Below, piece by piece: positions 32,313 through 40,255 of a stretch of 40,255 bases of DNA. Position 1 is the stretch's first letter. Every line of letters starts with the position of its first letter. The DNA comes from a virus (taxonomy: Duplodnaviria; Heunggongvirae; Uroviricota; Caudoviricetes). A model generated the notes under the pieces. It ran no database searches, was not told the origin of the DNA, and was given only the letters and a program-made list of their open reading frames with translations. The stretch covers positions 82,332 to 122,586 of IMG/VR virus record IMGVR_UViG_3300027708_000034; one strand, 5' to 3'. Made by a program: the position numbers and the translations under genes.

Positions 32313-34754
32313 TTAAGCTGAACATATCGGAGTTACAGTTGCTATACAATGAATATAACCCAATGGAGCTCCTGCACAGCACCTTTTGACTACAACAAAA
32401 AGTTGATTACATAATACTCCGCAGCCTGCTTGATAAATGTCTCCGGGTAATGCATAGCAGCATGTCCAATAACCAGGAGCATAATTTCGAGGAGCAGGAT
32501 TTATAAATGCTGCGCAGCAGGCCGCAAATACCTGTTGCTGTGCCCAATATCTTGCAGGGCGAGTTTGCTGCGGATAGTACTCAGATGCGCCGCATCCTTG
32601 GAAAACAATCGATCCCAAATGCCCAATAGTAACATTAGTAAATGTCACACTAGCACCAGTAGAGACATCCTGTCCTATAGATACTGTATATTTGGTCGCT
32701 GTAGTACTGCAACAGTGTGTTACTGTAACACCTGTTCCAGGTTGTATCTCAGTTACATATTTGTTAACGGGGCCGGGAATACCCTGACTACCTGTGTAAC
32801 CAGTGCTACCAACATAGCCACCTTCACCCTTGCTGCCATAATAGCCCATTGGGCCAGTTGGTCCCACTGATCCATCATAACCAGTAGATCCAGAATATCC
32901 ATCTATACCCCTGCTGCCACAATAGCCCATTGGGCCAGTTGGTCCAACTGATCCATCATAACCAGTAGATCCAGAATATCCATCTATACCCCTGCTGCCA
33001 TCGTAGCCGGCCGGGCCCCTAATTACTCCTACATCAGTCCATACTGAGCTAGCCCACACCCATAAGTGTCCATCGAAACTTATAATATATCCGTCACCGT
33101 TAGCACCGGTATAAGGTATTGGTAAACTGGTTGATGTAGATAGGGAACCAACAATTACTACCGATGTCCCGGGATCACCCTTGCTACCGTAATATCCAGT
33201 AGGACCAACTGAACCATCATACCCAGTAGATCCAAAGTAGCCAATGGGACCAATTGATCCGGAATAACCTATAGGGCCGATGGATCCATCATAACCAGTA
33301 GATCCAAAGTAACCAATGGGACCAACTGACCCATCATAGCCAACTGACCCATCAAATCCAGTGTAACCGCGCGAGCCATCATAGCCAACTGATCCATCAA
33401 ATCCAGTGTAACCGCGCGATCCATCATAACCAACTGATCCATCAAATCCAGTGTAACCGCGCGATCCATCATAACCAACTGAACCATCATAGCCAACTGA
33501 TCCATCAAATCCAGTGTAACCGCGTGAGCCATCATATCCAACTGACCCAGAATAACCAATAGATCCATCATAGCCAACTGAGCCATCATAGCCGGTATAA
33601 CCTATAGATCCATCATATCCAGTAAATCCACGTGAACCATCATAGCCAACTGAGCCATCATAACCAACTGATCCATCAAATCCAGTATATCCGCGTGAAC
33701 CATCATATCCAACTGACCCATCATATCCAACTGATCCAGCATAGCCAACTGAGCCATCATAACCAACTGAGCCATCATAGCCAACTGATCCATCAAATCC
33801 AGTATATCCGCGTGAACCATCATATCCAGCTGACCCAGTATACCCAGTAAATCCACGTGAACCATCATAGCCGGTATAACCTATAGATCCATCATAGCCA
33901 GTGGATCCAAAGTACCCAATATCGCCTACTGAGCCAGTATACCCAGTATAACCACGCGAGCCATCATAGCCGGTATAACCTATAGATCCATCATATCCAG
34001 TGTATCCAAAGTACCCAATATCGCCTACTGAGCCAGTATACCCAGTATAACCACGCGAGCCATCATAGCCGGTATAACCTATAGATCCATCGAATCCGGT
34101 GTAACCACGTGAGCCATCATAGCCAACTGACCCAGAATAACCAATAGATCCATCATAGCCAACTGATCCATCAAATCCGGTATATCCACGTGATCCATCA
34201 TAGCCTGTATACCCTCTGGAGCCATCGTATCCCACTGAACCAGAATAACCGATATCACCTTTACTACCAGTATACCCGCCAGCATCTCCTTTTTGGCCTG
34301 AACTACCAGTGTATCCAATGCTGTTGACCACTGTCATACCACAAGAGAATATTCTACCGCCAACTACTAAATCACCACCTATGCCAACGCCTCCCTCAAC
34401 CTGCAATGCTCCGCTATTAGTAGAAGTAGCAGATGTAAGATTTTTAATTAAAAATGTACTAGTAGTTCCAGTAGATGTGGCCGATACCCTAATGGTTACT
34501 ACAGTTCCAGAACTAGTAACTATAAGGCCTTCACCTACAAAGTCTAACAAACTGGCTTTGTTAGTTAATGTAGTTCCTTGTAATGCTACTGCTATATTAC
34601 CTATGCCAGATAATGGTTTACCGCCAGGAGTGACGCCGTCAGACAGTCGCAGCTCGCCTGTGAACTTGTCGTAGAATATTGTACCTTCTTGACCAATGAA
34701 GGTGTTTATGGTCTGGGTTACTACCTGACCAGCTTGTATCTTAAAAATGGACAT
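32313..34754 (-). CDS. Collagen-like fibre protein, 813 aa, with GYDGS repeats and Cys-rich C-terminus
   Basis: N-terminal FIG.EG.IFYD..TGELRLSDG.TPGG anchor-like motif; about 380-aa Gly-X-Y run; knob domain; 13 Cys in the C-terminal ~140 aa; purine-rich GAGGGGAG upstream. Confidence 0.85.
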   Translation of the reverse strand: MSIFKIQAGQVVTQTINTFIGQEGTIFYDKFTGELRLSDGVTPGGKPLSGIGNIAVALQGTTLTNKASLLDFVGEGLIVTSSGTVVTIRVSATSTGTTSTFLIKNLTSATSTNSGALQVEGGVGIGGDLVVGGRIFSCGMTVVNSIGYTGSSGQKGDAGGYTGSKGDIGYSGSVGYDGSRGYTGYDGSRGYTGFDGSVGYDGSIGYSGSVGYDGSRGYTGFDGSIGYTGYDGSRGYTGYTGSVGDIGYFGYTGYDGSIGYTGYDGSRGYTGYTGSVGDIGYFGSTGYDGSIGYTGYDGSRGFTGYTGSAGYDGSRGYTGFDGSVGYDGSVGYDGSVGYAGSVGYDGSVGYDGSRGYTGFDGSVGYDGSVGYDGSRGFTGYDGSIGYTGYDGSVGYDGSIGYSGSVGYDGSRGYTGFDGSVGYDGSVGYDGSRGYTGFDGSVGYDGSRGYTGFDGSVGYDGSRGYTGFDGSVGYDGSVGPIGYFGSTGYDGSIGPIGYSGSIGPIGYFGSTGYDGSVGPTGYYGSKGDPGTSVVIVGSLSTSTSLPIPYTGANGDGYIISFDGHLWVWASSVWTDVGVIRGPAGYDGSRGIDGYSGSTGYDGSVGPTGPMGYCGSRGIDGYSGSTGYDGSVGPTGPMGYYGSKGEGGYVGSTGYTGSQGIPGPVNKYVTEIQPGTGVTVTHCCSTTATKYTVSIGQDVSTGASVTFTNVTIGHLGSIVFQGCGASEYYPQQTRPARYWAQQQVFAACCAAFINPAPRNYAPGYWTCCYALPGDIYQAGCGVLCNQLFVVVKRCCAGAPLGYIHCIATVTPICSA
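33170..34320 (-). repeat. Low-complexity collagen-like repeat (GYD/GSR/GYT/GFD/GSV triplets; 9-, 18- and 27-bp periodicity)
   Basis: Direct reading of DNA and protein. Confidence 0.95.
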
Positions 34755-34778
34755 CTGGGTCTTTCTCCCCTCAACCCT

Positions 34779-35027
34779 TTACGGTAACTCTTTGGTTTCC
34801 GGATCAAGCTCGTCTTGTGTAAGATCTTTGATTATGGGACTTATTTTGCCTACTTGGGCTTTTTGCAACTCAAGTTGCTGTTGTAATGGCGAGACCATTA
34901 CTGGATCCTCTATTGGAACACTGGGATCAATGGGCTCATCCGAATTTGTCATATCGACTTCAGGATCTCCGTCGCCATTGATTTTAATGGTGATTGGTAC
35001 GTTGATTACAAATTCTCTGGCTCTCAT
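34779..35027 (-). CDS. Small acidic hypothetical protein, 82 aa
   Basis: Own TAAATA 5 nt upstream; D/E/P-rich with a PLQQQLELQK helix. Confidence 0.7.
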   Translation of the reverse strand: MRAREFVINVPITIKINGDGDPEVDMTNSDEPIDPSVPIEDPVMVSPLQQQLELQKAQVGKISPIIKDLTQDELDPETKELP

Positions 35028-35032
35028 AGTAG

Positions 35033-35038
35033 TATTTA
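35033..35038 (-). promoter_or_regulatory. Late promoter-like TAAATA overlapping the peptidase stop codon
   Basis: CA-TAAATA-CTACT-ATG. Confidence 0.65.
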
Positions 35039-35458
35039 TGTTATGGGTTTGCTCTTCAGAAATTCGGGATATTGCTTGTTGAAATGCCTCATAACAACGC
35101 CTGCTACCTGATGCGCTTGATTCTCTTCAGGGCTTCCTGTACGGCCGCTATCATTGTTTAATTCATGCTCAACGCTTTGTTTATAGTGAACTAATTCATG
35201 TGCTAATGTGCGTAGAATATCATTAGGATGACGATTCATTAAAGCTACAGTTAACGTATTATTGCTGTTATCAAAGCGTCCAAATGTTGGTTGTTCTTCA
35301 TCATCGACCATTGGAACAAACTCCATTTCGGGTAAAGAATCAAGTTCAATATAGTGCATGGCCAAAGGAATAAACTTCTGGAACATTTCCATGAAGTTAT
35401 CTTTATGGGAGGACATTGATTGATCTGCACCTTCGCACAGTAATTCTTTGATAATCAT
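35036..35458 (-). CDS. Zincin-type (HExxH) metallopeptidase-like protein, 140 aa
   Basis: LRTLAHELVHYKQ motif plus downstream EENQA (likely third ligand Glu); preceding beta-strands FGRF...LTVAL. Confidence 0.75.
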   Translation of the reverse strand: MIIKELLCEGADQSMSSHKDNFMEMFQKFIPLAMHYIELDSLPEMEFVPMVDDEEQPTFGRFDNSNNTLTVALMNRHPNDILRTLAHELVHYKQSVEHELNNDSGRTGSPEENQAHQVAGVVMRHFNKQYPEFLKSKPIT

Positions 35459-35464
35459 AATGTG

Positions 35465-35470
35465 TATTTA
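35465..35470 (-). promoter_or_regulatory. Late promoter-like TAAATA, 6 nt before ATG
   Basis: C-TAAATA-CACATT-ATG. Confidence 0.65.
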
Positions 35471-35576
35471 GTGCCAGTTACTTTATCTGGCGCACACTAC
35501 GCGGTGCAGTTCAATTGCGCGGACGCCCGGGCAAGCAAGCCTGCCCCCGTGACGACAACGGTCCCTAAGGTGAGAT
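35471..35576 (-). ncRNA. Putative structured RNA or regulatory element, family unidentified
   Basis: 62 G+C in 35471..35570. Stems: GGGCAGG-CUUG-CUUGCCC (35529..35546), CCGU/ACGG (35547..35561), GGAC/GUCC closing helix, GCGCA/UGCGC (35490..35520), CCAG/CUGG. Confidence 0.4.
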
Positions 35577-35663
35577 CTATACTGGACTATATGGATTACG
35601 TGTCCGATCCGTTCCATCGTCCTCCGGGTATACCGGATAATCATTGGGATTATTCTGCTGCAT
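35577..35663 (-). CDS. Possible 28-aa microprotein MQQNNPNDYPVYPEDDGTDRTRNPYSPV
   Basis: ATG overlaps the nuclease 3' end by 14 nt; TAG ends exactly where the structured element begins. Below the ORF-track cutoff; no clear ribosome-binding site. Confidence 0.3.
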   Translation of the reverse strand: MQQNNPNDYPVYPEDDGTDRTRNPYSPV

Positions 35664-36465
35664 TTGAACCACACTTGGCTCTTTTAGCCTTGGTCAACGC
35701 TCCAAAGTCCACAGGCCATTCCTGTCCAGGATTTAGTTCTCGAGCATTAGTTGGGAATTTATATTGCACACCTGCTATTTTTTCAATTTGATCAACAGGT
35801 ACCCTAAATCTAGTTAGGTCGTTGCCTAAATTAACATAGGGTTTTGTATGAGGGAACATCCATCCGGCAATCTCGTGTGTTTGATTATTGATTACGATTT
35901 TGTAATAGCCATGTGGAACAATAACACCGTTACCAATAGTAGGATCACCAGCGCCATATAATGCTCCAACGTAGATAGTAAATGCTTGATTGCGTTGAAC
36001 TGCCCAGCCTCGGACCGAAGTCTCTAACAATTTCCAAATTCCACGATTTAGGCTCCCATGTTGGGGATACATGTTGGTCATCAAGAAACTCTCGTATTCT
36101 ACTTGCTGAGTCCAACTCAAATCCCCGTCCGGTGCAGCATGTCCCTTGTCGTACCCGGTCCCAGCATAGTCGTCCGGTCTCGCACCGTTTGGGACTGATG
36201 CATCCGCTACAAAAGCATTGGTACGAGGGAAACATCCAAGGGCATTTTGTGGTAGTAGTGTGTACGCTACATACACGGGGATCTTTACGGGAGCATCGTA
36301 GGCCACTAGATATGCTTCACGGCAAATTGGCACGGCTGTACGTTGTGTTTGTGCAAAGCCATATGGGCTGTGTACTTGGCATGCCTGCGGTGGCAAGGGC
36401 GCACGTTGTTCCCAAGCAAATGCCTGTGTGGATAGGATCAGCAATCCTAGAAGTAATCGTTTCAT
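35650..36465 (-). CDS. DNA/RNA non-specific endonuclease (NucA/Serratia nuclease/EndoG family) with Sec signal peptide, 271 aa
   Basis: YDKGHAAP (DRGH catalytic motif); SFLMTNMYPQHGSLNRGIWKLLE; VIVPHGYYKIV; signal MKRLLLGLLILSTQAFA|W; four Cys. Confidence 0.9.
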   Translation of the reverse strand: MKRLLLGLLILSTQAFAWEQRAPLPPQACQVHSPYGFAQTQRTAVPICREAYLVAYDAPVKIPVYVAYTLLPQNALGCFPRTNAFVADASVPNGARPDDYAGTGYDKGHAAPDGDLSWTQQVEYESFLMTNMYPQHGSLNRGIWKLLETSVRGWAVQRNQAFTIYVGALYGAGDPTIGNGVIVPHGYYKIVINNQTHEIAGWMFPHTKPYVNLGNDLTRFRVPVDQIEKIAGVQYKFPTNARELNPGQEWPVDFGALTKAKRAKCGSNAAE

Positions 36466-36487
36466 AGAGGTACCTTTTAAGTACTAC

Positions 36488-36493
36488 TATTTA
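36488..36493 (-). promoter_or_regulatory. Late promoter-like TAAATA upstream of the nuclease
   Basis: 22-nt leader with TTAAAAGG, same leader style as at 24939. Confidence 0.55.
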
Positions 36494-36504
36494 ACCAAAC
36501 TATA

Positions 36505-39500
36505 TTATTTGGTCACTCTAAATGTAAAGCTGCCAATATGTCGGCATTCTATAGTAGAATCGGCCCAGATAGTGAATCCTTTGTTACGGGCCTTGCCGCA
36601 GAAGTCATTGTCCTCACTAATGGTATTGGCATGATCTATCGCGCTGTGATATTCAAACTGTGGATATCCTACTGACTGGAACACTTCCTTCTTGACCAAT
36701 ACACAGCCAAATCCGCAGCCCATGATCTGTACCAGTCCCCGGCCTTTTAGCTTGTCATGTGGCATGTTGGTTACCCCGCCATGTCCATTGTCTTCATATA
36801 TTTCTAACACATGTTGGTCAGGTTTACGTTGTATATACAGCCCGCTGACGATATCTTTGTTATGCGACAGTAATTTCTTCAGTGTATCACGTTCAAAGGC
36901 AATGTCGCTATCCACTGAGAATAGATAGTCATAGCTCTGTACAGTCCAGTGTGCGATTAGATTTCTTACTTGGTCGATGTTATAGCCGTAGAATGTTTGG
37001 AAGTCTACTTCGTATCCATCTGGAACTTCTAAATCATAGATAGATTTAAAAGTTTCAGGTTCGATGTATTTGGCCGTAGGTATTCCAACTAGGATTCGTT
37101 TCTTGTTCTTATCCCAGGGCTTGGTTTCCTGTACAGCAACAGACTGGCTCATGAGTCTGCGGGCTATGTCATGTAACTGGGGTTGTATGGTAGTATCATA
37201 TATCACACGCTCACGATCCAAAGCGCCGCCTGTCAGTGTAGGATCGCTAGTGGTCACAGCAAACTTGGTTTCGAAATCTAAATTAGCAATGAAGTAATTG
37301 GGCTTGCCCATGGCAATCTGTAGATCGAAGATGTAATTGTCACCAAAGAACACATCCAAGCCACTGGGAATAGGATGCCATGATGCCTTGTGACAGAAGA
37401 ACATGCTGCCAAATCCATATGTGTGCTTGCCCGGAGCCCATTTTACAATATCAATGCGCTTGTCAGTGATGGGTATCTGATTGAACACTTCGATGCCTGG
37501 ATGCAGGCCAAACAGTCCATTGCTGGGAGTCAGCATGTTTTGCAGTCGATCAAACACTTTCGTATCAAAGACAACATCATCGTTGACTATACATAATCTA
37601 TCGTACAATGCTTGCTCAACTCCAAAATTCCATGCAGGGTTTACAAAGGTATTGCGTCCTGGATCGAACATGCGTATCTTAGGATGATGGAGATCAGCAG
37701 GGGTGTTGGTGCTATCATTGTTAATGATGATAATTTCACCAACTGCCTCACAGTCACATAATACATGTAGGAAGTTTACAAACTGATCAGCCACACGCCA
37801 CATGGTGGGCACGATCACACTATACTTTTCTACTCGACGCTTGTTGACTATATCCCTGGCTGCTCTATTCTGTTCCTCAGCATTGACTTTATAATCATTC
37901 AACGGACTGGCATCGTTGTAGTTATAAACAACATCCTGTAGGCATTTTACCTTGCTGGGATCTGCTGCTTCTATCAAGGCATAGAATACGCTGCCATCAC
38001 CGCCTGCCTTGTACCATGTGCCATCGTCATATTGAAATAGGTCATCAGACAGGCCATTCATCAAACGCTTCTTAAACGTGCGCAGATGTGTATAGGGCAG
38101 TATCCAATTGAAGTGATGCTGTCTGTATGCACCTTGTCTTTTTACTTCTTCGGGATAGGGTTGGCTAATCAAAGGAATGTTATCAACCATGCTCCAGCAG
38201 GATCCATAGGTAAATTCAGTGGTACCATCATAGATAGTGTTGTAGTAACTGAATAGTGTGTTGTCATTGATCAAGCTGTCATCACCATCTAGTATGACGA
38301 CGATGGCATCATCCTCTACTATGGAACGTATAGCCTCTACTTGATTGCGAACAGCACCCATGTTCTCATCCTTGCGTATGCAGCTGAATTTTTGGAATAT
38401 ATCACGAGGCAGTCTATATACTGCTTCTACAGCATTGCCCATGCTACGATCTGAGGATGCATCGTCGATTATGATATGGTGGTAGTTGCTGTAGTCCTGC
38501 TGCGCCACACTCTGTATACAACGTTCGATGTGTTGTTCAGCATTGTACATGGTGCTAATCACTACGATCTTTTGTTCCTTGCCGCTTTTGTAATCTTCTA
38601 GTTCAACTGAGTTGTGATATCTGCGTCCGTATATCTTGTGCAGTCTGCGATTGATCTTAGTGACTTCTCTATATTCTGCTGCTGGCAGATAGGCACCACA
38701 CTCGCGGAACATGTGTTGACGCCATTGTCTTGCTACGCTATCCCACCCTGCGATGTCTTTGATGATGTTGCAGTAATATTGCTTTTGTTGATGTAGGTAC
38801 TTATTATGATATGCTTCCACTACCACTTGCACAAACTTGTCTACTTGGCTGGGTAAATCAATATGCTGGAACAAGTTATTGGGTTCCACGGCATAGTCGA
38901 TTAGGTAGCAGGCCTGCTCCAATGCGATTTCCTCCAGCCCACCAAACCTGCAGGTAATACTAGGAGTATTATACATCAAACTTTCCAGTGTGCTGATGCC
39001 ATATGTCTCGGGAAAGGCACATGGATAGATCATGAAGTTGGCCTTGCTCAATATGTTGGCAATCTCATTCTGTGGTATGACACCTGTGAAGTCGATGCCT
39101 CGTTCAGCATTGACTGGGTCAGCTGCCATGACGCGCCAATCTTTTTCCTGTTGATCAGGTTCCGAGCTTTCACTGAATCTATAGTAGCCGCCGACGATCT
39201 TTAATTGTGCATCAGGGATCTGTGCTTTGACTCTAGGCCAGATATGATTGACTAAAGGCATCATACCTTTGGTAACTGACGCATTGTAGACAAACAGGTT
39301 GGGATCTTTGGCCTTGATATCTACTTCAGGATTATAGTTGTAGGCACCATTGCGTGTGATAAAAATCTTACGTTTGAGTACTTCAAAATTGCGCCTCTTA
39401 CCGTGGTCGCAGTTTAGCACGTAGGTAGTATGCCAATCGCTAAGTGTGAAGATATCTGTGATTCGATCTGCAAGTGCCAATTCTTCGATCAATAAGTCGC

Positions 39501-39894
39501 CTAAACAGAATGTGTCGTGCATCCAAAGGATACGCATTTTGGCCCGACTCAATATCCTATCATATAGATTCATACCATGGAAGGGCCAAGCACGGCGGTC
39601 ATTTAGCTTGTCATACTGCCCGGGATCAACGAATGGAATTACTGTTCGGCTGCTGATCACTATGTCAAAATAGTGATCCTGTGCCAAATCGTTTAAGTTT
39701 CTGTAGGTCACACGATCATAAACACCTGGGACGGCGTGATCGATACAGTTATTGAAAACTGTAACTTCGAATCCCAAAGCTGCTAGTTCCTTGCTCATCA
39801 AAGTAACTGCGCTTTCGCTGCCGCCTAATCCCTGTTTGAATACTGTGGTACCATCGTAGGGTATGCCGATGATGTCGATAATAGCGATTTTCAT
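36505..39894 (-). CDS. Multi-domain glycosyltransferase, 1129 aa: one GT-B (GT4-like) plus three GT-A (GT2-like) domains
   Basis: GLGGSE and ETYGISTLE (E-x7-E) in the N-terminal domain. GT-A domains: VVISTMYN...IIIDDASSD...LDGDD (from ~aa 440); YSVIVPTMWR...IVNDDV...FFGD (from ~aa 690); ILVGIPT...FSVDSDI...GFGCVLV...SEDNDFC (from ~aa 930). Confidence 0.9.
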   Translation of the reverse strand: MKIAIIDIIGIPYDGTTVFKQGLGGSESAVTLMSKELAALGFEVTVFNNCIDHAVPGVYDRVTYRNLNDLAQDHYFDIVISSRTVIPFVDPGQYDKLNDRRAWPFHGMNLYDRILSRAKMRILWMHDTFCLGDLLIEELALADRITDIFTLSDWHTTYVLNCDHGKRRNFEVLKRKIFITRNGAYNYNPEVDIKAKDPNLFVYNASVTKGMMPLVNHIWPRVKAQIPDAQLKIVGGYYRFSESSEPDQQEKDWRVMAADPVNAERGIDFTGVIPQNEIANILSKANFMIYPCAFPETYGISTLESLMYNTPSITCRFGGLEEIALEQACYLIDYAVEPNNLFQHIDLPSQVDKFVQVVVEAYHNKYLHQQKQYYCNIIKDIAGWDSVARQWRQHMFRECGAYLPAAEYREVTKINRRLHKIYGRRYHNSVELEDYKSGKEQKIVVISTMYNAEQHIERCIQSVAQQDYSNYHHIIIDDASSDRSMGNAVEAVYRLPRDIFQKFSCIRKDENMGAVRNQVEAIRSIVEDDAIVVILDGDDSLINDNTLFSYYNTIYDGTTEFTYGSCWSMVDNIPLISQPYPEEVKRQGAYRQHHFNWILPYTHLRTFKKRLMNGLSDDLFQYDDGTWYKAGGDGSVFYALIEAADPSKVKCLQDVVYNYNDASPLNDYKVNAEEQNRAARDIVNKRRVEKYSVIVPTMWRVADQFVNFLHVLCDCEAVGEIIIINNDSTNTPADLHHPKIRMFDPGRNTFVNPAWNFGVEQALYDRLCIVNDDVVFDTKVFDRLQNMLTPSNGLFGLHPGIEVFNQIPITDKRIDIVKWAPGKHTYGFGSMFFCHKASWHPIPSGLDVFFGDNYIFDLQIAMGKPNYFIANLDFETKFAVTTSDPTLTGGALDRERVIYDTTIQPQLHDIARRLMSQSVAVQETKPWDKNKKRILVGIPTAKYIEPETFKSIYDLEVPDGYEVDFQTFYGYNIDQVRNLIAHWTVQSYDYLFSVDSDIAFERDTLKKLLSHNKDIVSGLYIQRKPDQHVLEIYEDNGHGGVTNMPHDKLKGRGLVQIMGCGFGCVLVKKEVFQSVGYPQFEYHSAIDHANTISEDNDFCGKARNKGFTIWADSTIECRHIGSFTFRVTK

Positions 39895-39901
39895 ACTACT
39901 A

Positions 39902-39929
39902 ATTATACATTAGCAGCGGGCAGTGTCAA
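39902..39929 (-). promoter_or_regulatory. Consensus sigma70 promoter TTGACA-N16-TATAAT, 7 nt upstream of the glycosyltransferase ATG
   Basis: Perfect -35 (39924..39929) and -10 (39902..39907) hexamers. Confidence 0.8.
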
Positions 39930-39945
39930 GGTTCTTGGAGAGCAG

Positions 39946-40138
39946 TTATGCTACTGGGGTGATGCTGATCAATCCAGCAGTACCTGCTTGAAGCACGTTG
40001 ACTGTGCTGGTGCTGTCCAATTTAAAATGCTCGCACGAATTGGATGGCATCAATATGCAAGTAGCTGTACTGACTGTTCTTCCACCAAATGCTACGAAAG
40101 CTGGTTAGATGTATTCTATGAGTGGCCACTCTTAGCAT
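39946..40138 (-). pseudogene. Probable frameshifted or truncated remnant of a small structural gene
   Basis: A coupled ATG at 40138 opens MLRVATH... in one frame. A different frame (39946..40104) reads PAFVAFGGRTVSTATCILMPSNSCEHFKLDSTSTVNVLQAGTAGLISITPVA* with phage-like A/T-ending codons but no upstream start. Confidence 0.35.
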
Positions 40139-40255
40139 TATGCAAATCCCGTAACCAAACTAGCGTAGTACACACTGCCAGTATAGGTGATAGTTAATAG
40201 GTCAACGGAACCAACTGCGGTGCTTAGAGTTTTGAGTCCGCCGGCAAACTTCATA
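40138..40255 (-). CDS. 3' end of a tail fibre-type protein (partial)
   Basis: ...MKFAGGLKTLSTAVGSVDLLTITYTGSVYYASLVTGFA*, a C-terminal motif common in phage fibre proteins. Confidence 0.75.
   Translation of the reverse strand, partial: MKFAGGLKTLSTAVGSVDLLTITYTGSVYYASLVTGFA

Follow-up and report, generated by a model that had tools for sequence, protein, structure and literature searches.

A four-domain glycosyltransferase beside a giant tail-fiber gene cluster in an uncultured T4-like lake phage: a candidate for virion glycosylation

An uncultured large T4-like phage from lake water encodes, at the edge of a giant tail-fiber gene cluster, a single protein with four glycosyltransferase domains (P0001), which raises the question of what this protein builds and on which acceptor. 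The first-pass annotation of this DNA had proposed glycosylation of the virion. The present analysis supports that interpretation in part, and an assembly line for virion, probably fiber, glycosylation is in our judgment the best reading of P0001, although one that we advance tentatively. The window, by which we mean the whole 40,255-nt stretch of DNA that was analyzed, contains the following features.

40138 to 40255, minus strand: 3' part of the upstream ORF, cut by the contig end
39902 to 39929, minus strand: sigma70-type promoter of P0001 (TTGACA-16 nt-TATAAT), leaderless-like geometry
36505 to 39894, minus strand, stop codon included: four-domain glycosyltransferase ORF P0001, 1129 aa
38605 to 39894, minus strand: Domain 1 (residues 1-430), GT-B fold, GT4-like, Pfam PF00534/PF13692
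37825 to 38604, minus strand: Domain 2 (residues 431-690), GT2-type GT-A, PF00535
37120 to 37824, minus strand: Domain 3 (residues 691-925), divergent GT-A; motifs PTMW, NND and invariant NDD (DXD-type)
36508 to 37119, minus strand: Domain 4 (residues 926-1129), GT-A of the STIV A197 / phrog_1574 family
35650 to 36465, minus strand: Endonuclease_NS-family nuclease, the next gene downstream of P0001, TAAATA upstream
35036 to 35458, minus strand: 140-aa protein, weak PHROG match to a metallo-protease, TAAATA upstream
790 to 34754, minus strand: fiber cluster of seven large ORFs with collagen repeats, He_PIG Ig domains and an Mtd_N domain

The ORF previously placed within 36505-39929 was borne out, except that its boundary lies at 39894 and position 39929 belongs to the promoter, not to coding sequence. 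In this window P0001 stands ahead of the fibers, whose ORFs encode 813, 2445, 1357, 3081, 1642, 598 and 955 aa. Their sum, 10,891 aa, agrees with the approximately 11,000 aa of hydroxyl-rich downstream fibers described before, and S+T accounts for 21-30% of their residues versus 14% in the rest of the genome. The S/T/Y richness of the fibers had been taken as a cue to the acceptor; the S/T enrichment is measurable, but it is generic to phage fibers and is also seen in a related genome that lacks the fused gene and still has a 2308-aa S/T-rich collagen-like fiber. In close relatives, an S/T-rich fiber-like ORF occupies the place of the truncated upstream ORF. The nuclease gene directly follows the glycosyltransferase gene in many relatives and is located elsewhere in genomes without it, and homologues of the 140-aa protein are located after the glycosyltransferase in relatives.

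The domain anatomy suggested from the sequence alone, one GT-B and three GT-A domains with catalytic motifs, is corroborated by Pfam, by folds and by invariant motifs. Profile-based parsing, which had been named as a check, recovered Glycos_transf_1, Glycos_transf_2 and Glyco_transf_21 over their cut-offs. AlphaFold2 models contain four folded domains (pLDDT 83.4 at full length, 86.2 for D3-D4); motif invariance was judged over 23-34 relatives. Domain 1 matches Glycos_transf_1 (PF00534) at residues 214-328 with 43.1 bits (cut-off 26.4) and PF13692 with 41.8 bits (cut-off 27), and it carries a GGSE loop (24-27) and, in its C-terminal half, E296-x7-E304, invariant in 29 and 34 sequences. Its PDB profile matches are GT4 enzymes, and its two Rossmann-like halves superpose on the GT4 enzymes MshA, sucrose-phosphate synthase (SPS) and PimA (Foldseek 6kih, 3c4q, 2gej, 7qsg; target TM 0.64-0.78, E 1e-11 to 6e-14). 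By Pfam score, fold and the E-x7-E motif, Domain 1 is a GT4-type GT-B domain.

Domain 2 is a GT2-type GT-A domain by its Pfam score (Glycos_transf_2 at 445-581 in two stretches, 81.6 bits, cut-off 23.3; PF00535 at 56.4 bits in the six-frame genome search) and its DXD motif. It contains DDASSD (477-482) and DGDD (536-539), with D536, D538 and D539 invariant in relatives, and its PDB profile matches include GalT1 5hea, K4CP, TarS, PmHS2 and SpsA. Domain 3, which is optional among relatives, reached 24.0 bits with PF00535 in the six-frame search, just over the cut-off, and had a weak phrog_29879 match and no sequence relative in the PDB search. Its model superposes with Z 14-15 on the generic GT-A enzymes WrtF, GalNAc-T1, TarS and TarP, and it contains NND (approximately 725-727) and NDD (771-773), the latter invariant in 28 sequences. 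Domain 3 has a GT-A fold with a DXD-type motif, an assignment made at the GT-A level only and with no CAZy family given. Domain 4 matches Glyco_transf_21 at 975-1076 with 23.6 bits (cut-off 21.7), PF00535 with 13.2 bits (six-frame search) and phrog_1574 with E 5e-25, and shows invariant DSD (995-997), SED (1093-1095, in SEDxDFC) and H1119. STIV A197 (2c0n) is its closest match: the profile hit is weak (E 1.3e-4), and the superposition gives Z 20.1 and an rmsd of 2.1 Å over 166 of 191 residues at 19% identity. Domain 4 belongs to the STIV A197-like viral GT-A group (phrog_1574).

P0001 has no hydrophobic segment (maximum KD19 1.59) and hence no membrane segment, which indicates a soluble protein. 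All four domains are acidic (pI 5.0-6.4), as are 120 relatives (pI 5.07-6.25). A basic pI is typical of transferases that dock onto a membrane or onto DNA. Positively charged surfaces have been described on DNA glycosyltransferases (Pyle et al.).

The promoter of P0001 consists of TTGACA at 39929-39924, a 16-nt spacer and TATAAT at 39907-39902, with the ATG 7 nt further on. No other 12/12 sigma70-type match lies within 34500-40255; the whole 122.6-kb record has six perfect sites, every one on the gene-coding strand, against about 0.2 expected by chance on our own base-composition estimate. Upstream TAAATA elements are found at the nuclease and peptidase genes, at the gene for the small acidic protein and at those for the 2445-, 1357- and 1642-aa proteins, in keeping with the contrast drawn earlier between a perfect sigma70 promoter and TAAATA neighbors. 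The promoter is early-type in the phage itself and in its closest relatives, and a sigma70-type early promoter is kept in about half of the relatives. However, a late-type TAAATA lies at the same place, a few bases before the ATG as in virion genes, in 11 of 42 relatives, and the proposal that the enzyme is made early so as to be ready for the fibers does not generalize.

P0001 belongs to an unnamed family with more than 1800 protein clusters; its members, from freshwater T4-like jumbo phages, were found on 410 IMG/VR contigs, and in no cultured phage. Among the best 120 relatives, 12 different layouts were counted, each with 3 to 6 catalytic domains, and most of these proteins end in a C-terminal FkbM methyltransferase. 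With relatives of this range, and since tandem GT-A enzymes can be polymerases, the "up to four sugars" of the first-pass annotation was a guess. The fused gene is absent from eight near-complete related genomes (331-374 kb) and is therefore accessory. Where present, the protein is 50-98% identical across phages with differing fibers, whose hosts so presumably differ as well.

What we infer is the enzymatic activity, the order of steps, the sugars donated and, most of all, the acceptor. P0001 would be a soluble cytoplasmic "assembly-line" enzyme, in which the GT4-type GT-B domain and the three GT-A domains each take one sugar from a nucleotide-sugar donor and jointly build one oligosaccharide or short polymer, to which the FkbM domain of most relatives could add a methyl cap. 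The likeliest acceptor would be the phage's own virion proteins, probably the neighboring giant fiber or baseplate-attached proteins, which fold in the same compartment as P0001. The outcome would be a glycan coat whose structure differs between phages by gain, loss and shuffling of domains.

Loss of fiber linkage in relatives had been named as an outcome that would speak against this proposal, but the linkage holds. Of the distinct (non-identical) related loci, 29 of 30 have a fiber-like ORF no more than three ORFs upstream of the gene, against 3 of 34 with one downstream, whereas base-modification enzymes never adjoin it in the loci examined. At least four arrangements keep the linkage: on the same strand after the fibers and then followed by the nuclease; between the fibers and T4 gp15; divergent, between two fiber operons; and, as in this window, ahead of the fibers. 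Close homologues of the nuclease are found mostly in non-fiber contexts with no glycosyltransferase nearby; the glycosyltransferase gene tracks the fibers, not its nuclease neighbor. The directly upstream fiber has at least four unrelated C-terminal modules, with no common acceptor module visible. Related loci share ancestry and so are not independent; moreover, fiber islands of aquatic T4-like phages gather accessory genes, and their glycosyltransferases have been interpreted as modifying the O-antigen, so adjacency alone is weak evidence.

The kinship of Domain 4 points in the same direction. In four unrelated small phages, a stand-alone relative immediately follows the major capsid gene, and in the Methanobacteriales virus among them it is also near collagen-type tail genes; a fifth phage has its relative in a morphogenesis operon, and in marine cyanomyoviruses the relatives are just upstream of the baseplate genes gp25-gp6-gp7. 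The two most distant relatives are among replication genes. STIV A197, an essential viral glycosyltransferase of a virus with a glycosylated capsid protein (PMC10551542), shares with Domain 4 the minimal GT-A fold and DXD motif; the archaeal-virus enzyme is a stand-alone protein of 197 aa, whereas Domain 4 is the C-terminal module of a fusion.

The nearest parallels to the whole architecture are in chloroviruses. Two soluble PBCV-1 proteins build the capsid glycan: A064R, with two rhamnosyltransferase domains and a methyltransferase, and A111/114R, with three glycosyltransferase domains (PMC9614988). Like P0001, they are single viral polypeptides with several transferase domains; each of their domains adds one residue to a virion-protein glycan and the methyltransferase caps the terminal sugar, a role that the FkbM domain of most P0001 relatives could share. 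Unlike P0001, they belong to a eukaryotic virus, act in capsid N-glycosylation and lack a GT4 domain, and P0001 has four glycosyltransferase domains, with up to six catalytic domains in its relatives. No sequence relationship to A064R or A111/114R was detected. Orthologues aside, the closest viral folds are those of giant-virus multi-glycosyltransferases (CeV-01B, Bandra megavirus, ChoanoV1, Klosneuvirus), and the collagen-glycosylating LH3 and mimivirus R699 match the tandem GT-A part, but these matches are at the fold level only, with 9-15% identity and a high rmsd across paired domains. The fibers adjoining P0001 carry collagen repeats; P0001 has no hydroxylase domain. Freeman et al. are said to have found in 2023 that mycobacteriophages Che8, Corndog and Myrna glycosylate their own structural proteins with phage-encoded glycosyltransferases. 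Those systems reportedly comprise separate glycosyltransferase genes of actinobacteriophages and glycosylate not fibers but the C-terminal ends of capsid and tail-tube subunits; they are not known to involve a fusion protein or a T4-like phage.

P0001 is a soluble transferase linked to structural genes, as in virus-encoded virion glycosylation systems. Virion glycosylation is favored by the position at the fibers, the tracking of fibers by the gene, TAAATA in 11 of 42 relatives, the kinship of Domain 4, the soluble acidic protein, the chlorovirus precedent and a second sugar cluster beside a fiber gene. Against it stand the missing gene in eight genomes, an early promoter that would equally suit host takeover, the lack of a shared acceptor module and the position of the most distant Domain 4 relatives among replication genes. 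Also against it, a bacterial autotransporter heptosyltransferase of the TibC/Aah type (TIGR04414), which would have been a marker of protein glycosylation, had no match in the record itself or in a complete 322.5-kb relative that carries the gene (G001); G001 has only an unrelated GT9 gene, about 100 kb away.

Less likely, though the strongest competitor, is remodeling of the host surface, in which P0001 would extend or replace an envelope glycan (O-antigen, capsule, S-layer, pilus or flagellin) from the cytoplasmic side and so block superinfection by competing phages or keep progeny off cell debris. Terminal methylation caps the chain in some O-antigen systems. T4-like pelagimyophages and cyanomyophages carry glycosyltransferases in a "host recognition cluster", and the published view assigns these a role at the host surface (PMC12801897; Zaragoza-Solas et al., 2020, PMC7029224, in its excerpted text, where they are read as O-antigen modifiers). 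Those clusters come from the same kind of phage and likewise mix fiber genes with glycosyltransferases in a hypervariable island, but the excerpted text describes several separate genes, mainly GT8, and mentions neither a fused multi-domain family nor a virion target. The early promoter of about half of the relatives would fit, as would the patchy, accessory distribution expected of host-specific functions; late-type promoters in the 11 of 42 are ill-suited to a job done before lysis, and 50-98% identity persists despite differing fibers and presumably hosts. The tandem GT-A domains superpose on, and resemble in having several modules per chain, the polysaccharide polymerases K4CP (chondroitin) and PmHS2 (heparosan synthase), and ABC-transporter-dependent O-antigen pathways provide further bacterial multi-domain glycan synthases (PMC11231755, excerpted text). 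Unlike these synthases, P0001 has low sequence similarity, an acidic pI and no membrane-docking features that we could see; the lack of a membrane segment and the acidity of all domains and of 120 relatives count against a role at the envelope, as does the placement of the Domain 4 family inside capsid and tail operons of small phages. The Domain 2 profile matches mostly cell-wall and exopolysaccharide GT2 enzymes, and a stand-alone FkbM neighbor has a weak RfbT match. However, all NCBIfam matches fall far below cut-offs, and no named O-antigen or exopolysaccharide family was recovered. The best NCBIfam score was 47 bits versus a cut-off of 423 (equivalogs such as WcaA, TuaG, PgaC and PglI), and P0001 is not one of these named bacterial polysaccharide glycosyltransferases. 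Gtr-type systems consist of integral membrane proteins and work through a bactoprenol-linked sugar. Serotype conversion of this type (GtrA/GtrB/Gtr-type-specific) was rejected on the absence of a hydrophobic segment; the GtrB-like phrog_841 match is weak (E 3e-4) and covers the nucleotide-binding part only. If the host surface is rewritten after all, P0001 would be a compact superinfection-exclusion system of a lytic phage.

We consider it improbable that the product is a free, lipid-linked or small-molecule-linked glycan (a storage or protective oligosaccharide, or a glycolipid) uncoupled from virion and host polymers. The structural neighbors of Domain 1 include sucrose-phosphate synthase, MshA, BshA, glycogen synthase, GlgM and methylmannose polysaccharide mannosyltransferase, all of which use soluble acceptors, but such a product leaves unexplained the fixed site at the fiber cluster, the late promoters of some relatives and the virion-operon context of the Domain 4 family.

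DNA hypermodification, like host surface conversion an alternative raised in the first-pass annotation and here a multi-sugar glycan on hydroxymethylated bases for restriction evasion, is very unlikely: T4-type phages glucosylate their DNA, phage GT-A/GT-B enzymes can make di- and trisaccharides on 5hmC (bioRxiv 10.1101/2023.12.21.572611) and two distant Domain 4 relatives are among replication genes, but cytosine C5 methyltransferase (PF00145) was unmatched in the record and in G001, the only thymidylate-synthase homologue of G001 scores as a canonical ThyA (345 bits) and lies far from the gene, none is present in the record, P0001 never adjoins base-modification enzymes in the loci examined, and its acidic pI is unlike that of DNA-binding transferases. 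A Tet/JBP search gave no match, and its control was equally silent; neither the pairing of a C5-methyltransferase with 5mYOX nor a nearby ThyA-family hydroxymethylase was found.

Returning to virion glycosylation, experimental proof in tailed phages exists, to our knowledge, only for mycobacteriophages, and giant eukaryotic viruses are the known source of multi-domain glycosyltransferases of viral origin; with this abundant family, the same principle would reach T4-like phages that infect lake bacteria, and tail fibers as well. Somewhat more speculatively, Gram-negative freshwater tailed phages may coat their giant fibers with a virus-made, often methyl-capped oligosaccharide, built by one modular polypeptide and rewritten by gain, loss, duplication and reordering of domains. 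In that case such rewriting, of which the 12 domain layouts are the visible trace, would add a second source of variation, at the level of the glycan, to host recognition or to escape from recognition by hosts and grazers. The layouts also offer a natural series for assigning sugar to domain. Tail fibers decide host range; if phage-made glycans sit on them, the sugars would have to enter host-range prediction, adsorption models and structural studies of the fibers of these phages.

The second sugar cluster of the same genome adjoins another collagen-type fiber gene and encodes GT11-like and GT2-like enzymes, a DUF5672 protein, an NDP-sugar dehydratase/epimerase and two methyltransferases.

The parent IMG/VR record, rated 34% complete by CheckV, spans 122.6 kb, and the window is its final 40 kb. 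Judged by its gene content, this record is that of a large T4-like phage: it encodes a ribonucleotide reductase, baseplate-wedge-like proteins and gp37-like fibre tips, and one of its virion proteins is ~52% identical to the counterpart in Synechococcus phage S-CAM1. The 'moraphage' lineage (PMC12619734) was considered and proved to be a different lineage from that of the phage carrying the glycosyltransferase P0001. Pfam, PHROGs and AlphaFold2 folds confirmed the presence, announced in the first-pass annotation, of one GT-B and three GT-A domains in a single protein, as follows.

Window 36505-39894, minus strand: P0001, a single ORF of 1129 residues
Residues 1-430: domain D1, superposing on retaining GT4 enzymes, e.g. 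MshA, sucrose-phosphate synthase and PimA; motifs GGSE and E296-x7-E304, invariant
Residues 431-690: domain D2, an ordinary GT2 by profile; motifs DDASSD and DGDD, invariant
Residues 691-925: domain D3, plain GT-A in fold (Z 14-15 to WrtF, GalNAc-T1 and TarS); motifs NND and NDD, invariant
Residues 926-1129: domain D4, matching STIV A197 with Z 20.1 and rmsd 2.1 A over 166 residues; motifs DSD, SEDxDFC and H1119, invariant

In Pfam, P0001 matched the GT-B family PF00534 at residues 214-328, the GT2 family PF00535 at 445-581 and, weakly, a GT21-like family at 975-1076. In PHROGs, residues 986-1127 matched phrog_1574, and residues 692-785 matched a galactosyltransferase family weakly. A six-frame search with PF00535 found three separate spots within the ORF (56.4, 24.0 and 13.2 bits). 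The AlphaFold2 model, built on 34 relatives, shows four compact domains with a mean pLDDT of 83.4, and a second model limited to residues 691-1129 reached 86.2. D3 found no sequence relative in the PDB, even by profile search. For D4, the next-best fold match, Mnn9 (Z 17.0), lies well below A197, the stand-alone glycosyltransferase of the archaeal virus STIV (PDB 2c0n), to which D4 was also linked by profile (E 1.3e-4). The expected acidic motifs are invariant across every alignment made of P0001 relatives, so that the catalytic motifs claimed earlier for all four domains are upheld and none of the domains looks dead. The sugar specificities of P0001 are not readable from its sequence, since a search of NCBIfam reached no curated family.

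The gene is preceded by the following promoter.

Window 39929-39902, minus strand: sigma70-type promoter TTGACA-16 nt-TATAAT, a 12/12 consensus match

No other 12/12 match lies in its region. The entire record has six, every one of them on the coding strand, compared to a chance expectation of ~0.2 estimated from base composition. The contrast noted previously is real: P0001 has a perfect sigma70-type site, whereas the neighbouring genes have TAAATA. The -10 hexamer ends 7 nt ahead of the ATG. Because the N-terminus MKIAIID... forms strand one, a conserved element, of the GT-B fold, the start codon is correct, and the transcript would have no leader or almost none. Of the six perfect promoters, three end 6-7 nt before an ATG (window 39895-39929; G000:C1, the whole record, 53809 and 38317, minus), several TAAATA motifs lie 5-7 nt before the start codons of genes for 1642-, 2445-, 140- and 82-aa products, and such promoter-close-to-start geometry was seen at ~10 of 130 ORFs of the record. 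This arrangement suggests that the phage has leaderless early and late messages.

Among 42 related loci, the same spot is occupied by a sigma70-like pair in ~21, by an overlapping TATAATTAAATA in three and by TAAATA in 11. Since the promoter classes of relatives differ, the expression timing is not fixed within the family, and the TAAATA loci contradict, as a general rule, the proposal that the enzyme is made early. A sigma70-type -10, a late-type TAAATA or the overlapping TATAATTAAATA directly before the glycosyltransferase ATG can be compared in L027, L028, L055, L011, L026, L035, L038 and L042, and this looks like class switching through a few base changes.

More than 1800 relatives of P0001 were retrieved by protein search, and 410 encoding stretches by a scan of IMG/VR. 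Domain-by-domain BLAST of the best 120 of the more than 1800 cluster representatives resolved 12 layouts.

Domain layouts among the best 120 representatives
D1-D2-D3-D4 with C-terminal extension: 58
D1-D2-D3-D4, as in P0001: 24
D1-D2-D4, with or without extension: 18
Other layouts: 20

An FkbM methyltransferase makes up the C-terminal extension, and some loci have in addition a stand-alone FkbM or GNAT gene directly after the glycosyltransferase. Among the other layouts are forms with a second D1, with D3 shifted to the N-terminus, with an additional C-terminal D3 or with an inserted domain, which in one relative is Methyltransf_24. P0001 is the four-glycosyltransferase form without a methyltransferase, and no FkbM gene was found in the 122-kb record. 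No longer fusions (e.g. to a fibre or lectin domain) were found, in a search of low evidential weight.

UniProt orthologues are 'uncultured Caudovirales phage' entries bearing domain names only. The fused gene was found in no GenBank phage (no match by megablast, single-domain matches only by tblastn); D3 alone matched no phage and D1 alone gave three weak phage matches. A direct search of ten large related records showed that the eight with a completeness of 95% or more (331-374 kb) all lack the fusion and carry stand-alone D4-like genes at most; for this reason the idea of a conserved core gene was dropped. One complete 322.5-kb genome with terminal repeats (G001) does carry the fusion. By this distribution across genomes, the gene is accessory. 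A scan of GTDB yielded three contigs, probably of phage, that had been placed in gammaproteobacterial MAGs: L102, L103 and L104, one on a 201-kb contig, encode orthologues of 50-59% identity in MAGs of Gammaproteobacteria, Cellvibrionaceae and Luminiphilus. These are probably mis-binned phage and could hint at the host group. The same scan returned stand-alone D2 relatives (L107-L131; 27-35% identity, including the C-terminal YNDxNPLND part of D2) concentrated in MAGs of Chlamydiae, Dependentiae/Babeliales, Simkaniaceae and Phycisphaerales. In the single-cell-associated Marine virus AG-345-L05 (MH319754.1, 119005-120413), D4-like and D1-like coding stretches lie side by side, perhaps as a split version or an ancestor of the fusion.

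The linkage to fibre genes extends to the relatives. Of the 30 non-identical related IMG/VR loci that have 2.5 kb or more of upstream sequence, 29 show a fibre-like ORF among the three ORFs preceding the glycosyltransferase, compared to three of 34 downstream; an ORF counted as fibre-like if it was at least 250 aa long and was collagen-like or contained 20% Ser+Thr or more, which applies to 18 of the 131 ORFs of the P0001 record. The commonest arrangement is fibres, glycosyltransferase, nuclease, peptidase and then a block matching 62-69 kb of the P0001 record. One group of relatives has fibres, glycosyltransferase and T4 gp15, and in a 50%-identity group the gene is divergent, between fibre operons. 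In the window the fibres come after the nuclease and peptidase. Upstream of the glycosyltransferase, at the point where our contig ends, an S/T-rich ORF is present as well in the closest relatives. The fibres directly upstream share no common C-terminal module as an acceptor or docking candidate, having at least four unrelated endings. Eleven of them (L017, L018, L019, L021, L023, L024, L031, L041, L049, L051 and L072) share a module G-Y-I-D-D-x-R-I-T ... A-R-Y-T, which we take to resemble a LamG/concanavalin-type lectin domain; other loci have at least three unrelated modules. No obvious link, judged by eye, was seen between the presence of D3 or FkbM and collagen-type neighbours.

The neighbouring nuclease was tried as an anchor for the core-gene test and is a poor one, because it moves around the genome itself. 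Of the 52 nuclease loci whose upstream DNA is long enough, just five have the glycosyltransferase, and most close nuclease homologues have non-fibre contexts with no glycosyltransferase nearby. In a complete 355-kb relative (L189, 996-8768), the nuclease comes straight after a collagen-like fibre of 2308 aa, and the glycosyltransferase is missing from between them; the genes around the nuclease in most other relatives are of ordinary size and do not encode fibres.

The gene that comes next after the major capsid gene is a stand-alone relative of D4 in a Methanobacteriales virus (there near phrog_819 and phrog_3904 collagen-type tail genes), two spring-water phages and Microcystis phage Mel-JY34. 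A fifth phage has one inside a morphogenesis operon, the marine cyanomyoviruses P-SSM2 and Sf-CH8 (L093) have one just upstream of gp25-gp6-gp7, and two more distant relatives are among replication genes. In P-SSM2 (L092, 70230-73056) the D4-like gene is located between phytanoyl-CoA dioxygenase and 2OG-Fe(II) oxygenase genes; a hydroxylation-plus-glycosylation pair acting on collagen-like virion proteins could be encoded there. STIV, whose capsid protein is glycosylated, requires A197 (PMC10551542).

The fibre linkage, the late promoters in part of the family and the D4 family itself were counted for a virion-protein acceptor. Glycosylation of the virion, as first proposed, is the best single explanation, unproven and held at a little below even chance. 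The Ser/Thr richness of the fibres, cited earlier in its support, is real and was given little weight, because it is generic and also occurs in a relative without the fused gene. Among phages, glycosylation of the virion is known from mycobacteriophages. Chloroviruses and mimiviruses encode multi-domain enzymes that assemble glycans (PMC9614988); P0001 shares this organization, and its assembly activity is predicted from sequence. In the literature searched, neither a fused enzyme of three to six domains in tailed phages nor a link of such an enzyme to T4-type fibre clusters was described.

Remodelling of host surface glycans is the main rival reading and is held less likely than virion glycosylation. 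It would fit the early promoter of P0001, the patchy distribution of the fused gene and the polymerase-like tandem GT-A fold, and it is the published view of such fibre islands (PMC7029224). A free, lipid-linked or small-molecule-linked glycan is improbable. No membrane segment is present in P0001, and the protein is acidic over its whole length, like each of the best 120 relatives; this argues mildly against lipid-linked and DNA acceptors. Hypermodification of DNA is very improbable, as the complete relative lacks a C5 methyltransferase and has only a canonical-scoring ThyA far from the gene; a Tet/JBP search is left out of account, since neither the search nor its control gave a match. A lead to TibC/Aah-type protein glycosyltransferases does not apply here, with no match in the P0001 record or G001.

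Outside the window, a second sugar-gene cluster (G000:C1:12858-25022; L002:12858-19315, L003:324-6022) encodes GT11-like, GT2-like and DUF5672 proteins, a GDP_Man_Dehyd-like NDP-sugar dehydratase/epimerase, a methyltransferase resembling Methyltransf_24/CmcI and several unknowns, and directly adjoins a 1226-aa collagen-type fibre with a gp37-like tip.
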